From: Candidatus Nomurabacteria bacterium
GTDB lineage: Bacteria > Patescibacteriota > Minisyncoccia > Phycocordibacterales > UBA9973
Direction: 5' to 3'
Length of the DNA: 64,000 bases
NCBI GenBank assembly: GCA_020631955.1
Contig: JACKGL010000004.1
Location: 25,811-89,810 of the forward strand
Shown: positions 49,924-58,734 of the stretch, in pieces
How positions within the stretch are numbered: the first letter of the stretch is position 1
Layout: each line of letters opens with the position of its first letter
Program-made: the position numbers and the translations under genes
The notes under the pieces: generated by a model
Database searches by the model: none
The model's input: only the letters and a program-made list of their open reading frames with translations
What the model was told of the DNA's origin: nothing

Positions 49924-50532
49924 CTATTTACCTTCGTGACCAGTACATCCACCTTTGCAACCTTCGCAGTTGTCACACTTACCACCACATTCCTTACAAT
50001 CACAGCTACCGCAGTCACACTTACCTTCACCACAACCACAAGATCCAGCACAGCCTTTACACATTCCTTCTTTACAATCTGACTTGTCGCAACATTTGCC
50101 ACACCCACATCTTATAGCCATATCTCCAGGTCCTGTCATAGCCATACCAAAAGCTACTAACATAAGTATGAAATCTAGTTCAAAAGCTCCGAAACCTACT
50201 CCACCTCTACCTTTTACAAGCACGATAGAGAAGAACATGATAGTAGCTAGTATCACACCAGCTACATGAGTCCAAAGACCAAAAAGCATAAGTCCCCCAG
50301 AGACAACTTCCAATATAGATACCAACCAAGCAAAGAATGCTCCAAGTCCAAAAGAAGCAAAGAAAGCTATAGTGCCTTCTATGTTTGAAAGCTTTTGTAT
50401 ACCATGAAAAATAAACACACTAGCTAAAGCTAGTCTGATAAGTAGCAAACCAAAAGCAGGATTACAGCTTTCTGTCAGCCCAACTTTTGAGAAGCACTTA
50501 CAAGTACCGTTTTTACAATTACACATAAACAC
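49924..50532 (-). CDS. DoxX-family membrane protein with metallothionein-like Cys-rich C-terminal tail
   Basis: DoxX-like 4-TM core (LLLIRLALASVFIFHG...) then ~60 aa with about 20 Cys in CxC/CxxC arrays. Confidence 0.6.
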   Translation of the reverse strand: MFMCNCKNGTCKCFSKVGLTESCNPAFGLLLIRLALASVFIFHGIQKLSNIEGTIAFFASFGLGAFFAWLVSILEVVSGGLMLFGLWTHVAGVILATIMFFSIVLVKGRGGVGFGAFELDFILMLVAFGMAMTGPGDMAIRCGCGKCCDKSDCKEGMCKGCAGSCGCGEGKCDCGSCDCKECGGKCDNCEGCKGGCTGHEGK

Positions 50533-53850: not shown

Positions 53851-54363
53851 ATGAAAGTACTTTTATTAGAGGATAATCCTCAAAATATCGAAAGCTTAAA
53901 AACGGCAATTTTAACTGCCTGCCCTAATGCTGACATTACTGTATTAACAGAAGTAGGAGCTTCTTTTTACAAAGGTTCCGAATACAACGAGGCTGTGCAA
54001 TTAGCCTCGTATGATGCTGTAATAACAGATGTAAACATGCCTGGCTATACTGACCGTGATGGCATGATAATGAGCCCAATTGGACCTATTATTGCCTTAA
54101 AGGCATTACAGCAAGGAGTTAAAAGAATTGCCGTTTTGACGGATGCCAACCACCATGAAGCCAGCCCGATTTCAAAATCGGCTGATCTTTTCCGGGGTTT
54201 TCACTCGGAACTTGGATTTAATGGTGACTGTGTTATTGGTGACATAAAATTATATTATGAAAACACTAATAAGCTTAATACCAAGTATCAAACAGACACC
54301 TTGAGATGGCTCTTTAGTGAAACTAAAGACAGGGTTGTAGATTGGTTGAAAAAAAATCCGTAA
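53851..54363 (+). CDS. stand-alone response-regulator receiver (REC) domain protein with unknown C-terminal extension
   Basis: MKVLLLEDN..., DAVITDVNMPG (phospho-acceptor Asp context). Confidence 0.55.
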   Translation: MKVLLLEDNPQNIESLKTAILTACPNADITVLTEVGASFYKGSEYNEAVQLASYDAVITDVNMPGYTDRDGMIMSPIGPIIALKALQQGVKRIAVLTDANHHEASPISKSADLFRGFHSELGFNGDCVIGDIKLYYENTNKLNTKYQTDTLRWLFSETKDRVVDWLKKNP

Positions 54364-54412: not shown

Positions 54413-54454
54413 GAGACATGTGGGTCACTCCGATACTTAGTTCTCTTTGCGGTG
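54413..54454 (+). repeat. truncated boundary repeat R-c (interrupted by IR1-L after ...ttgcgg)
   Basis: catgtgggtcactccgatacttagttctctttgcgg aligns with the 5' part of R-b. Confidence 0.5.
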
Positions 54455-54640
54455 TTTATTGGACAAAGTTCGAAACTATTTCGAGCAAAATCCAAACGAT
54501 TAATGCGGACTCGGCAGGGCGAAACAATTTGTCTGAGGGAAAGGATTCGCCCTGCCTCGGCTGTTTTCCCGCCCGCAGGAGGGGTCTGGGGAGGAATGCG
54601 GGCGGGTTTCGGACTGGGGGTTTTCGGAAATTCGGCAGCT
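54450..54640 (+). repeat. IR1-L (~191 bp, GC-rich, contains two strong internal hairpins)
   Basis: Reverse complement matches 56824..57014 over every stretch I compared. Confidence 0.8.
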
Positions 54641-54649
54641 AATAAAAAT

Positions 54650-55133: not shown

Positions 55134-55535
55134 TTATCTGTTGCCTTTCAAAAGCAAGCCAACATTTTCCCAAGTCCAGTTATACATTTTGTCAGTGGTT
55201 TTTACTCCGACTGGGAATGTGCAATTCTTATTACTTCTGCCTTTGATAAGAAAATATGGCTTGCCTAATTCTTGGGCAATTTTTATTTCTTCCGTAACTC
55301 CTTTTGCTGTGTGTGTCCATTCACCGCAAATCACGACGACCTGTTGAGCATTTATTATTTTCTGCTTAACTTTTGCTTTCCAATCACCCAACAACGCTTG
55401 TTTGACTGACAAGTCGCTTATTTCAAAAGGAGTGTCGTCGTGTTTTGCTTGTCCGACAAAAAGATGTTTCAAATCCTCGTCGTGATCAAAATCAAAACTG
55501 ACGAATACTTTTGTTTTTGTGCCGTAGTAAGTCAT
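55134..55535 (-). CDS. TIR-like (DUF1863/ThsB-like) domain protein
   Basis: KVFVSFDFDHDEDLKHLF (TIR beta-A/DUF1863 N-motif) and QQVVVICGEWTHTAKGVTEEIKIAQELGKPYFLI, which parallels ThsB VTCVLIGSQTFNRRWVRYEIMKSIEKGNKIIGI including the conserved Glu. Confidence 0.6.
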   Translation of the reverse strand: MTYYGTKTKVFVSFDFDHDEDLKHLFVGQAKHDDTPFEISDLSVKQALLGDWKAKVKQKIINAQQVVVICGEWTHTAKGVTEEIKIAQELGKPYFLIKGRSNKNCTFPVGVKTTDKMYNWTWENVGLLLKGNR

Positions 55536-55542
55536 AAATTAT

Positions 55543-56505
55543 TTACTCAAAGAATTTTCCAAGCCACCCACCAACAATACTTTGTGCAAATGCAATAACT
55601 TGCACAATCACAAAAATCAAAAATGGGTTTATATCTACAAACCAACTAACAACCCACGAAAGGAGAAGTGTCAGAAGTAAAGAGATAACAAATCCTTTTG
55701 TTTTTGAAATTTTTGGTTCAACTTCTTTTTTTGTTGGTTCATCTTTTTTATCGAGTAGTTTTTGGATATATTCAACTATTTCATCACTACTTTTAAATTC
55801 TATTTCAGAAATGCCAACATAACTTGAAGATTTTTCATCAAAAAGCGATTTATTAAAATCCTCAACATATTTCAGTTTCTTGCCATAAGCAGAATCATCA
55901 CGCTTCTCTTTCGGCAAATCCCAATATGCTTCACTCTCTTTCTTTTCTGATTCATTATCTGGATACCAAATACTCATTCCATAGTCGCCTGTATGGATTT
56001 CCAAGCCATGAGAGTCTTTTTTTACAAGTTCTTTTACTTTAGCAACGCCATCTTTAATTCTCTCTATGGATTGACGCAAAAACCTTCGATATTCATCTTT
56101 TGAGATTATTTCTGGATGTTTCGATAAAATGTATAAATTAACTTCATAATTTCCAAAAATTGGTACTTTAGACCAAACAACTTCTTTTTTTAGACTTTCA
56201 ATTCTGTCAGGCATGACAAAATCTTTTTTCTTGATTTCGGACTCCAAAACAACGCCGTCTTTTATTGAATGGTCTGTTCCACCTACAAAATCATGATAAA
56301 GCTCTATTGTCCGCATCTTTAAATCAATAGGATCATCTGAAATTTTATACTCAATTGTGGAATAGTTATGATGATAATCATCATTAATGCTCACATCTAT
56401 CTTAATTTTTTTCTCACTAGGGAAAAACTCAAAAGTGTTCGTTGTATGTTCATCGTTTATGACGATTGAATTTTCATCATCAAAAATTTCTACTTCTTTT
56501 TTCAT
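55543..56505 (-). CDS. hypothetical protein, ~270-aa soluble N-domain plus C-terminal 2-TM domain
   Basis: C-terminal hydrophobic helices GFVISLLLTLLLSWVVSWFV and FLIFVIVQVIAFAQSIVGGWL. Confidence 0.5.
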   Translation of the reverse strand: MKKEVEIFDDENSIVINDEHTTNTFEFFPSEKKIKIDVSINDDYHHNYSTIEYKISDDPIDLKMRTIELYHDFVGGTDHSIKDGVVLESEIKKKDFVMPDRIESLKKEVVWSKVPIFGNYEVNLYILSKHPEIISKDEYRRFLRQSIERIKDGVAKVKELVKKDSHGLEIHTGDYGMSIWYPDNESEKKESEAYWDLPKEKRDDSAYGKKLKYVEDFNKSLFDEKSSSYVGISEIEFKSSDEIVEYIQKLLDKKDEPTKKEVEPKISKTKGFVISLLLTLLLSWVVSWFVDINPFLIFVIVQVIAFAQSIVGGWLGKFFE

Positions 56506-56517
56506 AAGTTTAAAAAA

Positions 56518-56724
56518 TTATTTTAATAAATCCTCCATAGGAACGCCTAACGACTTGGCGATTTTTTGGATTGTTTGAACGCTTGGTTTCGTAACAACAC
56601 CACCCTCAATTTTTGTCAGGGTAGAGTATTTTATGTCCGCTTTTTTCGCCAAGTCATCTTGGGTCAATCCTTGTTTTGTTCGTATTCGTTTTATGTTTTC
56701 TGATATAGTTGCCATAGTATCCAA
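56518..56724 (-). CDS. XRE-family helix-turn-helix transcriptional regulator
   Basis: IKRIRTKQGLTQDDLAKKADIKYSTLTKIEGG is a Cro/C1-type HTH. Confidence 0.7.
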   Translation of the reverse strand: MDTMATISENIKRIRTKQGLTQDDLAKKADIKYSTLTKIEGGVVTKPSVQTIQKIAKSLGVPMEDLLK

Positions 56725-56823
56725 ATTTTGATAGTATTATCTTATGAGAAGATTCTTTCTTTGCTCACAAAACAATGATAGCAAAAATTATGGATTTATT
56801 CAATATGTATTTTCTGATTTTGT

Positions 56824-57014
56824 AGCTGCCGAATTTCCGAAAACCCCCAGTCCGAAACCCGCCCGCATTCCTCCCCAGACCCCTCCTGCGGGCGGGAAAA
56901 CAGCCGAGGCAGGGCGAATCCTTTCCCTCAGACAAATTGTTTCGCCCTGCCGAGTCCGCATTAATCGTTTGGATTTTGCTCGAAATAGTTTCGAACTTTG
57001 TCCAATAAACACCG
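56824..57014 (-). repeat. IR1-R (inverted copy of IR1-L)
   Basis: See IR1-L. Confidence 0.8.
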
Positions 57015-57131
57015 CCAAAATTCGGAATTCAAATTTCCGCCAAAAATATGGTCGGCGCGAAGCGCCGTCTGTTCTGCATTCCCCCCACAAAATCCTGATT
57101 CTGCAAGGATTCGCCACGCTCCGCGTGGCTC
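57012..57131 (+). repeat. IR2-L (~120 bp), immediately abutting IR1-R
   Basis: Reverse complement matches 58533..58652; contains palindrome cggaattcaaatttccg. Confidence 0.75.
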
Positions 57132-57155: not shown

Positions 57156-58500
57156 ATGAATAATCACACCAGAAAGTTTTTTATCTATACTCGTAAATCT
57201 ACCGATACAGAAGATCGGCAAGTTAGAAGCATTTCGGACCAATTGGCCGAATTGAAATCTCTTGCACTCAAAGAGAATATTGAGGTTGTAGATATTTTTG
57301 TAGAAAAACAAACCGCCAAGATTCCGGGTCGGCCAGTATTTGACGAAATGCTTCTTCGTATCGAGCAAAATGAGGCAAATGGAATTTTAGCGTGGCATCC
57401 TGACAGATTAGCGAGAAATAGTGTTGATGGTGGAAAAATTATCTATTTGCTCGATACGGGGAAAATTGCCGAACTTAAGTTTCCAACTTTCTGGTGTGAT
57501 ACGACACCGCAAGGAAAATTCATGCTCTCAATCGCTTTTTCGCAATCCAAGTATTATGTGGACAATCTAAGCGAGAATATCAAGCGTGGTAAGCGGAACA
57601 AAGTGAAAGACGGAATATGGCCTCAAATGTCTCCACTCGGATATATGAACAAGGGTGGAAAAATTGTTGTTGATGAAAATATCGCACCTTTAATCAAGAA
57701 AACATTTGAGGCATATTCGTCTGGGTCTTTCACTTTGCGCCAACTTCGTGACAAATTTAACGAACTTGGATTGAAGCGAAAAAGCGGAAAGGAACTTGCG
57801 GTGTCGAATTATCAAAAACTTTTGAAAAATCCGATATACACTGGTTTGATGCTGTATAACGGCGAAATCCACGAGGGCAAGCATGAACCGATTATCACAA
57901 AGAAACTTTTTGATTCCGTTCAGGAAGTGATGATGAGGAAATCTAAACCTCACTCGAAAGGTCTAAAACCATTTTGTACAGAGGATTTTTCCGTTGTGGA
58001 GAATGTGGCTGTTTCATTACCACCGAAACACAAAAAGGACATAACTATTTGCGATGTACCAAACGGAAAAATCCTTGCTCACAAAAAATACACTCGTGAG
58101 GAAATCATCACTTCCGAAATTCAAAAAGAAATCAAAAAGTTTCTTTGCCAGACGATTGGGCTAAATGGATGTTGGCGGAAAACGAAAAAGATAAATTGGT
58201 GGAAACCCAATCGTCTACGCTTTTTAGGATAAGACAAAAGCCGATATTTCTCTCTTGATTCCAAGATTGAGAAGCTGATGAATGCTTACCTAGAAAACGC
58301 ACTTTCACTAGAGGAGTATCGAGATGCTAAAAGTGCGTTGGTCAATCAAAAACAGCTTCTCAAAGAGAAATTATCGGCTTTTGAGCAAAAAGGGAATAAT
58401 CGGTTCGAACTTACGGAAAAGTTTTTGAAATACAATATAGAATTGGCAAACGAGGGAATAAATGAAGAGAAACTTCATTTATTCAAAAAAGTCGGTTCGA
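57156..58500 (+). pseudogene. large serine recombinase (resolvase/integrase family), disrupted
   Basis: N-terminal catalytic domain (YTRKSTDTEDRQVRSISDQ..., GILAWHPDRLARN) and recombinase domain present; canonical zinc-ribbon FRCGECGCFITTETQKGHNYLRC is readable only in the -1 frame around 57977..58090; in-frame TAA at 58230 before the coiled-coil C-terminal part. Confidence 0.6.
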
Positions 58501-58532: not shown

Positions 58533-58652
58533 GAGCCACGCGGAGCGTGGCGAATCCTTGCAGAATCAGGATTTTGTGGGGGGAATGCAGAACAGACGGC
58601 GCTTCGCGCCGACCATATTTTTGGCGGAAATTTGAATTCCGAATTTTGGCGG
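58533..58652 (-). repeat. IR2-R (inverted copy of IR2-L), last bases overlap tRNA-Ser 3' end/CCA
   Basis: See IR2-L. Confidence 0.75.
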
Positions 58653-58734
58653 AGACGGAGGGATTCGAACCCTCGGTGGTGTGACCCACACACGCTTTCC
58701 AAGCGTGCGCACTAGACCGCTATGCGACGTCTCC
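58650..58734 (-). tRNA. tRNA-Ser (anticodon GGA), type II with long variable arm; CCA encoded at 58647..58649
   Basis: Reverse complement folds as GGAGACG acceptor, 3-bp D-stem, anticodon stem CACGC/GCGTG with loop TTGGAAA, 16-nt variable arm, T-arm GAGGG-TTCGAAT-CCCTC. Confidence 0.8.

Follow-up and report, generated by a model that had tools for sequence, protein, structure and literature searches.

A stretch of 64,000 nucleotides (nt) from Candidatus Nomurabacteria bacterium (GenBank contig JACKGL010000004.1), referred to here as the window, was found to carry a gene for a ThsB-like TIR protein that is followed on the same strand, 4 nt after its stop codon, by a gene for a small membrane protein of the 8xMP family. 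Across many phyla, 8xMP is a near-obligate downstream partner of TIR. The two genes probably constitute a Thoeris-like module of anti-phage signalling, in which the TIR protein would make an NAD-derived messenger that activates 8xMP. The window TIR is thus the predicted signal synthase, and the 8xMP protein is most likely both the predicted signal receptor and the membrane effector. What had appeared to be the puzzle of a lone TIR becomes a two-component system with a specific prediction, namely that 8xMP reads a TIR-made nucleotide in the membrane, the best guess for which is the nucleotide that activates the caspase-like effector of type IV Thoeris.

The open reading frame (ORF) at 55134-55535 encodes a genuine ThsB-type TIR protein. 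It was recovered with exactly the coordinates, minus-strand orientation and ATG start given in an earlier sequence-only reading of the window, and the motifs quoted there are present in its translation. The 133-residue product matched Pfam family PF08937 (ThsB_TIR) over residues 11-101 with 30.7 bits (curated cutoff 21.2, E=4.3e-07), and a precomputed match to the same family is present in nearly all of its homologues, which make up more than 430 protein clusters. The AlphaFold2 (AF2) model, built on 33 homologs (pLDDT 80, pTM 0.76), revealed the alternating beta/alpha, flavodoxin-like topology of TIR domains. The top match of the model to the PDB in a Foldseek search was the Bacillus cereus TIR 8fz9 (E=1.9e-08, TM 0.73/0.75), and the other best matches included EcThsB (8wcf), EcThsB2 (8v6t), the MyD88 TIR and SPARTA TIRs. 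Both a TIR profile match above cutoff and a TIR fold were therefore obtained, the opposite of the outcome that the sequence-only reading had named as speaking against its identification.

The TEEI motif of the window TIR contains two adjacent glutamates, of which the conserved one is Glu83 (E83), located in helix alpha-C (residues 78-90) of the AF2 model. E83 was found to be invariant in the 33-sequence TIR alignment and in 132 of 132 clade members, in keeping with the Glu that had been noted at the catalytic position, and this invariance argues for a conserved enzymatic activity. The window TIR is 36% identical (E=7e-19) to the TIR domain of the type IV ThsB of Pseudomonas sp. 1-7 (PsTIR), and in the pairwise alignment E83 stands opposite the Glu of the PsTIR KWEI motif. 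A residue count along the domain sequence in Table S1 of Yirmiya et al. (bioRxiv 10.64898/2025.12.03.692087) suggests that this Glu is E79 of PsTIR; the E79Q substitution abolishes defence (Rousset et al., bioRxiv 10.1101/2024.10.24.620036). E83 is a candidate catalytic residue of the window TIR.

Genomic context was compared in two samples of loci, each locus being designated by L and a number. The TIR-centred sample consisted of 85 loci with relatives of the window TIR at 51-93% identity; 80 of these came from species-representative genomes of many phyla and were the 80 closest of 553 confirmed relatives, a choice that is biased toward the clade. An 8xMP alignment retrieved the 80 metagenome loci of the 8xMP-centred sample, and 77 of these had enough upstream sequence to be informative. 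An 8xMP homolog was present in 40 of the 85 TIR-centred loci, and in 39 of those 40 it lay downstream of TIR on the same strand, mostly abutting or overlapping it. Viewed from the other side, a TIR gene was located directly upstream of 8xMP, on the same strand, in 72 of the 77 informative loci (94%), so that the stand-alone status assigned to the TIR in the sequence-only reading does not hold. On RefSeq plasmids of Haematospirillum jordaniae and Synechococcus elongatus, a ‘TIR domain-containing protein’ overlaps a ‘hypothetical protein’ that is an 8xMP homolog, and further homologs were found on cyanobacterial, actinobacterial and haloarchaeal plasmids.

These counts bear directly on the idea that the window TIR acts alone, with its receptor encoded elsewhere in the genome or by another neighbour, the 320-residue protein, and with 8xMP as an unrelated adjacent gene. 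The 320-residue gene does lie directly upstream in the same operon, and its product has a C-terminal membrane anchor. However, among 165 related TIR/8xMP loci no homolog of this protein was found except in two near-identical Logan contigs, and it is absent even from L006 and L007, whose TIRs are 90-93% identical to that of the window. Given the proportion of informative loci in which 8xMP follows TIR, an independent TIR is effectively refuted by co-occurrence, and we regard it as extremely improbable.

Among the remaining 8xMP loci, a pentapeptide-repeat protein gene, and not a TIR gene, lies upstream of 8xMP in L163 and L164. In L157, an ORF (14-592) upstream of 8xMP (791-1321) has a weak match to class III nucleotidyl cyclases (E=5e-04, just under the cutoff), a hint that Pycsar-like signalling based on a cyclase might use 8xMP as well. 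The haloarchaeal plasmids with 8xMP homologs belong to Halobaculum and Natrinema, and the TIR homolog locus L049 comes from a metagenome-assembled genome of Thermoplasmatota; the module thus crosses the boundary between bacteria and archaea.

The partner of the TIR was found to be exchangeable. Among the 45 TIR-centred loci that lack 8xMP, 28 have a downstream gene for a caspase-like Peptidase_C14 protein of about 325 residues; L002, too, has a TIR gene followed by a caspase-like Peptidase_C14 gene, and relatives of the window TIR at 51-60% identity pair with a caspase. In a neighbour-joining tree of 132 TIRs, 8xMP and caspase partners are interleaved, requiring at least 14 switches, and the nearest two TIRs with different partners (8xMP versus caspase) are separated by a BLOSUM distance of 0.11. 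In L143, L152 and L165, 8xMP is preceded by an EcTIR-like ‘YNLFISHSW’ TIR, a member of the other type IV clade. Differing downstream genes within one TIR cluster were the basis on which Yirmiya et al. (bioRxiv 10.64898/2025.12.03.692087) nominated Thoeris effectors, and the frequent exchange with the type IV caspase effector within the same TIR clade likewise places 8xMP in an effector role. Exchange of caspase and 8xMP on near-identical TIRs also amounts to a natural experiment on effector swapping with a fixed signal.

A different division of labour has to be weighed against this evidence, in which the TIR itself is the killing NADase effector, as are the TIR effectors of CBASS and Pycsar systems and SPARTA, and 8xMP serves as its sensor or activator (responding, for example, to membrane perturbation at phage DNA injection) or as its membrane anchor. 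An NADase effector role is common among bacterial TIRs, and contexts of this kind were excluded by Yirmiya et al.; moreover, the TIR has 133 residues and no separate sensor domain, and 8xMP has no recognisable nucleotide-binding fold. In type IV systems, however, close relatives of this TIR precede a caspase and act as signal producers, and the frequent swapping of 8xMP with that caspase assigns the effector role to 8xMP. The known Thoeris ThsB proteins are equally small, and they sense infection without a separate sensor domain. A killing role for the TIR itself is therefore considered improbable, and the assignment of TIR as predicted synthase and of 8xMP as predicted receptor and effector is preferred.

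Other arrangements were observed in the TIR-centred sample. In six loci from gut or rumen Treponema, Lachnospiraceae and Oscillospiraceae (L025, L062, L064, L073, L076 and L085), the downstream gene encodes neither 8xMP nor a caspase, and is instead a second TIR of the TIR_2/ThsB_TIR type, about 155-175 residues in length. L001 and L002 share a common multi-TIR type IV Thoeris cluster in the order TIR_2, ThsB_TIR, ThsB_TIR and caspase, which also includes divergent helix-turn-helix (HTH) and Peptidase_M78 genes and a DUF2188 gene. The caspase gene is intact in L002 (329 residues); in L001 it is cut to 90 residues and followed by a Y1 (IS200/IS605-type) transposase.

The genes that neighbour TIR-8xMP pairs include restriction-modification (RM) methylases, TaqI and type I/IIG restriction components, serine recombinases, toxin-antitoxin (TA) genes and further TIRs. 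The location of pairs on plasmids among TA genes, near recombinases and transposases, together with the position of the window genes on a segment that resembles a mobile element, would fit an addiction module of toxin-antitoxin-like or holin-like type, whose role would be to stabilise mobile elements, with no part in signalling or in defence against phage. The invariance of the catalytic-position Glu, on the other hand, implies that an enzymatic activity has been conserved, a validated defence system uses the same TIR clade, and mobile elements typically carry defence systems anyway. An addiction module is accordingly judged to be highly improbable, and a defence-signalling pair remains the favoured explanation.

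The 8xMP protein of the window matched Pfam PF24838 (‘Octameric membrane protein family (8xMP)’) with 147.8 bits (cutoff 30, E=2.1e-43) over profile positions 1-135 of 136. Clustering at 90% identity gives at least 2,096 clusters for the family, nearly all of them with a hypothetical-protein annotation, and the database record with the exact window sequence is likewise a hypothetical protein of Candidatus Nomurabacteria bacterium. Hydropathy supported three transmembrane (TM) helices. The AF2 monomer is all-helical, with helices at residues 9-61, 69-110, 112-124 and 137-158. In the model, helix 9-61 starts as a cytoplasmic amphipathic segment and continues into TM1; after a short loop, helix 69-110 comprises TM2 and continues as a cytoplasmic helix; and the C-terminal part consists of helix 112-124, a loop and TM3 (137-158). 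Lys and Arg are distributed unevenly, with seven in residues 1-43, one in 63-71 and seven in 93-138. Hydropathy and these counts fit a topology with the N-terminus inside and the C-terminus outside, in which residues 1-43 and 93-138 would be cytoplasmic.

Conservation among 34 diverse members of the family was concentrated on the predicted cytoplasmic side. Twelve residues are invariant (Y24, R38, L96, N97, K100, E108, E119, W120, Y132, E139, P143 and F146) and six are nearly invariant (K25, S35, R37, N42, S92 and P112). Most of the conserved residues are polar and are located at the cytoplasmic side or at the membrane edge; R38, N97, K100, E108, E119, W120, Y132 and E139 are all found within the cytoplasmic segments or bordering them. 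TM1 is unusually polar and bears a conserved ANNYFLTxN motif. The possibility that 8xMP is a divergent SLATT protein was considered and rejected, as no SLATT Pfam match was obtained at E<=1 and the hhalign probability against the SLATT-like partners of the TIR clade was 0.7%. A literature search found nothing that characterises the 8xMP family.

The proposed mechanism begins with phage infection, upon which the TIR would turn NAD+ into a second messenger derived from ADP-ribose. The messenger is predicted to bind a homo-oligomer of 8xMP on its cytoplasmic face, which is conserved and positively charged. A cytoplasmic site is favoured because a nucleotide made in the cytosol would meet the conserved polar residues there, and the putative binding face comprises the N-terminal helix (R37 and R38) and the helix that follows TM2 (N97, K100, H105 and E108). 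Ligand binding may then open, or assemble, a membrane-disrupting 8xMP pore, and the pore would bring about growth stop or death of the infected cell ahead of phage release.

As for the identity of the messenger, N7-cyclic ADP-ribose (N7-cADPR) is the leading, although tentative, candidate. In type IV Thoeris, TIR makes N7-cADPR and a caspase-like protein is the effector, and metabolites from cells expressing EcTIR are reported to activate PsCaspase (Rousset et al., bioRxiv 10.1101/2024.10.24.620036). N7-cADPR is the best guess because both TIR clades that occur upstream of 8xMP also pair with the type IV caspase, whose signal it is.

Several points weigh against the signalling module as proposed. 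The N7-cADPR assignment derives from partner swapping and not from chemistry, related TIRs can make different products, and TIRs whose product failed to activate the cognate effector have been described (Yirmiya et al., bioRxiv 10.64898/2025.12.03.692087). Some 8xMP genes lack an upstream TIR, and the survey of neighbouring genes is a qualitative tally (PADLOC, 100 neighbour proteins, counts per family) and not a controlled enrichment. The PADLOC ThsB models matched the TIR protein weakly (best 1.2e-05). For 8xMP, the confidence of the AF2 monomer is moderate (pLDDT 74, pTM 0.56), the octameric state is implied by the name of the Pfam family only, and no recognisable nucleotide-binding domain was identified in the protein; a PDB sequence search with the 8xMP profile gave no match at E<=10, and Foldseek comparison of the model with the PDB gave nothing below E=1. 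Finally, the searchable literature contains no experiment on defence, NAD+ turnover, signal or 8xMP toxicity for any TIR-8xMP pair.

Type IV Thoeris is a close counterpart of the window locus among the characterised systems. The window TIR belongs to the same clade, its candidate catalytic Glu is aligned, and the gene order is TIR followed by effector, whereas the cassette of the window has no Peptidase_C14 match and carries 8xMP in the effector position. Among the rows listed of Table S1 of Yirmiya et al., clade members of the window TIR are assigned to cluster 2635319349, ‘Caspase - Type IV’. That study (bioRxiv 10.64898/2025.12.03.692087, December 2025) described 29 putative Thoeris configurations; types V-XI were validated in it, and others were left untested.

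A configuration very similar to the window pair has in fact been catalogued. In the rows listed of Table S1, the label ‘3TM’ appears at least 100 times in the putative-effector column, where it stands for a small three-TM protein encoded after a TIR gene. Over 130 residues, the TIR of L165 (3565-3972) shares 100% identity with one of these entries, ga0209542_10000011137, from the same scaffold, and the gene downstream of the L165 TIR encodes a PF24838 protein (E=2.9e-42). For this one entry, therefore, the ‘3TM’ configuration is a TIR-8xMP operon, and at least part of the class consists of such operons. The TIR-8xMP configuration is thus already predicted, as judged from the rows listed, and the window locus is a further member of a predicted, unvalidated kind. 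The claim of the sequence-only reading that the receptor would be an unrecognised domain holds in that the partner is functionally uncharacterised, but not in that the partner belongs to a named family and that at least this one ‘3TM’ entry is a TIR-8xMP pair. The ‘3TM’ rows listed belong to the EcTIR-like YNLFISHSW clusters 2734565194 and 2556961318, whereas the window TIR is of the Ps-like cluster 2635319349, and the window cassette adds an HTH gene and the 320-residue gene. To find the label given to pairs of a Ps-like TIR and 8xMP, six long scaffolds from the set were looked up among the Table S1 rows listed, and none occurs there.

Type V Thoeris, which consists of TIR and DUF2270/ThsF and uses 3′-cyclic ADP-ribose (3′cADPR), resembles the window pair in combining a small TIR with a small three-TM protein that is predicted to form a ring-like homo-oligomer (a homo-heptamer in AlphaFold3 for type V), with charged cytoplasmic pockets as the proposed ligand sites. 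The window 8xMP, however, has no match to DUF2270 (PF10028) at E<=1, and its TIR belongs to another clade with another expected ligand. Types II (TIR and Macro-TM; histidine-ADP-ribose, His-ADPR) and VII (TIR and SLATT; cADPR) likewise use a TIR-made nucleotide to trigger a membrane-disrupting effector, and the best structural matches of the window TIR model include EcThsB and EcThsB2, but the window 8xMP has neither a Macro domain nor a SLATT match. The ThsB-type TIR (PF08937) is shared with type I (ThsB and the SIR2-SLOG protein ThsA; 3′cADPR), from which the window differs in that its predicted effector mechanism is membrane-based and does not involve NAD+ depletion. The absence of a canonical ThsA, as originally noted, was borne out: SIR2, SLOG and Macro domains gave no match in the seven genes scanned around the TIR (52.6-58.2 kb).

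For the specialist, a TIR paired with a membrane effector is unsurprising in principle; the value of the window locus is that it can be tested sharply and leads into a large orphan family. If the proposal is confirmed, a function would be assigned to a large family of membrane proteins and a validated type would be added to Thoeris, and abortive-infection signalling would be found at work in Patescibacteria, which are episymbionts with minimal genomes.

The TIR and 8xMP genes are the last two of a cassette of four minus-strand genes (Xre-family HTH, 320-residue protein, TIR and 8xMP) separated by gaps of 12, 7 and 4 nt; coordinates are collected in Table 1. The description of the neighbours as membrane proteins and an HTH regulator was accurate as far as it goes, two membrane proteins and an Xre-type HTH protein having been found. 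The HTH protein also matches the PADLOC models HTH_VI, RM ‘control protein’ and capH, and homologs occupy the equivalent position in L007, L008, L090, L117 and L118. It probably restrains transcription of a toxic operon. A promoter-like site, suggested by a consensus scan, lies between the upstream A repeat (see below) and the HTH gene.

Table 1. Features of the TIR-8xMP cassette and its surroundings (positions in the window)
Feature	Coordinates	Strand	Basis or remark
A repeat, copy downstream of 8xMP, operon-sense	54446-54646	.	201-nt inverted repeat
8xMP-family small membrane protein, 159 residues, three predicted TM helices	54650-55129	-	PF24838
ThsB-like TIR protein, 133 residues, ATG start	55134-55535	-	PF08937, AF2 fold, Glu83 conservation
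320-residue protein, C-terminal TM region (about residues 268-316)	55543-56505	-	slot between HTH and TIR
Xre-family HTH protein, 68 residues, first cassette gene	56518-56724	-	PF01381 HTH_3, E=8.9e-17
Promoter-like site: TTGAAT, 17-nt spacer, TATCAT, extended -10 TG	56775-56803	-	consensus scan only; suggestion
A repeat, inverted copy upstream of HTH gene	56818-57018	.	99% complementary to 54446-54646
B repeat, copy adjoining upstream A copy	57012-57131	.	120 nt, 100% complementary to 58533-58652
Large serine recombinase, apparent pseudogene, divergent from cassette	57156-58430	+	Resolvase and Recombinase domains
B repeat, copy directly downstream of tRNA-Ser	58533-58652	.	120-nt perfect inverted repeat
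tRNA-Ser(GGA), likely integration landmark	58647-58734	-	ARAGORN, Rfam RF00005

The 320-residue protein belongs to no Pfam, PADLOC or NCBIfam family (NCBIfam also gave no name for TIR or 8xMP), and its own family is small and uncharacterised, with 151 representatives. In other cassettes, the slot upstream of TIR is occupied by unrelated genes, which encode an SSF-type transporter-like protein, a TaqI-like methylase with an uncharacterised protein, zinc-ribbon membrane proteins, a 298-residue protein with weak similarity to nucleoside deoxyribosyltransferase and HIT domains, or a lipase with an uncharacterised protein. The absence of the 320-residue gene elsewhere and the unrelated contents of the slot indicate that it is accessory cargo. 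As a candidate for the missing receptor, the protein was rejected as a core component on account of its absence from related loci and its small orphan family. The 298-residue slot protein (L094:2693-3589 and L096:1304-2200), whose similarities to nucleoside 2-deoxyribosyltransferase and HIT domains are below the Pfam cutoffs, may be a second effector of its operon; similar domain types are the effectors of type VIII and type XI Thoeris.

The cassette is bounded by a pair of inverted repeats (A repeats) that enclose 2.17 kb. The A repeat has a GC content of 53%, compared with 37% in the window, and in eight other loci of the Patescibacteria type (L007, L008, L090, L094, L096, L103, L117 and L118) 8xMP is immediately followed by a copy with 75-92% identity; in L007, L090 and L118, inverted A pairs flank the cassette. 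The repeat is predicted to fold into two GC hairpins of 10-11 bp (fold energy z=-3.6), and 7 of 26 predicted pairs are maintained by two-sided, compensatory changes. The 39-nt core of hairpin 1 is identical in five other loci and has no exact match among viral contigs, and Rfam, at both the gathering and E<=1 thresholds, revealed no known RNA family in the A or B repeats. The A repeat may be a target of recombination, mark a transposon-like end, insulate transcription or act as a structured RNA. Hairpin-rich inverted repeats of this kind around the cassette may indicate that such modules are moved or switched by an undescribed mechanism.

A second pair of inverted repeats (B repeats) flanks a serine recombinase gene next to the cassette. 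Both B copies start with the hexamer CCGCCA; in one copy it coincides with the 3′ end of tRNA-Ser(GGA), and in the other with the end of the upstream A repeat, which suggests a recombination crossover at the 3′ end of the tRNA. The arrangement is not what would be expected from simple integration, and a misassembly may be involved. The recombinase is 51% identical (E=2e-147) to that of L118, which occupies the same divergent position, and is apparently a pseudogene: its zinc-ribbon segment has shifted to another frame, in which alone it can be read (57974-58099), and an in-frame TAA stop is present at 58230-58232, past which the L118 homology continues. That the cassette is enclosed by conserved inverted repeats and lies next to a serine recombinase in decay at tRNA-Ser points to horizontal acquisition of the module.

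The frameshifts and the in-frame stop of the adjacent recombinase raise the question of whether the whole locus, brought in on an element whose recombinase then decayed, has lost its expression or function in this genome and persists as an inactive remnant. However, all four cassette ORFs are intact and the gaps between them are small, no family-invariant residue is missing from TIR or 8xMP, and identical cassettes recur in independent assemblies. One of these is the 2,241-nt Logan contig L086, which contains exactly the four cassette genes and ends inside both A copies. A remnant is thus given a low probability, and an intact TIR-8xMP module is preferred.

A broader proposal would combine the two lines of evidence, such that 8xMP is a family of pores gated by a second messenger, with N7-cADPR as the leading candidate, and that the Patescibacteria pair travels in a repeat-bounded cassette (HTH, swappable slot, TIR and 8xMP, between structured inverted repeats of about 200 nt) that is moved or inverted by the serine recombinase. 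This combination is rather unlikely to hold as a whole; if true, it would define a new mobile or phase-variable architecture of defence cassettes in bacteria with very small genomes.

Two further genes of the window were noted. Just outside the downstream A repeat, 53851-54363 (+) encodes a 170-residue protein with a sub-threshold receiver-domain match (E=3e-04) and no output domain. Farther away, 49924-50532 (-) encodes a 202-residue membrane protein with very Cys-rich tails at both ends, which consist of metallothionein-like CxC and CxxC runs, an unusual combination.

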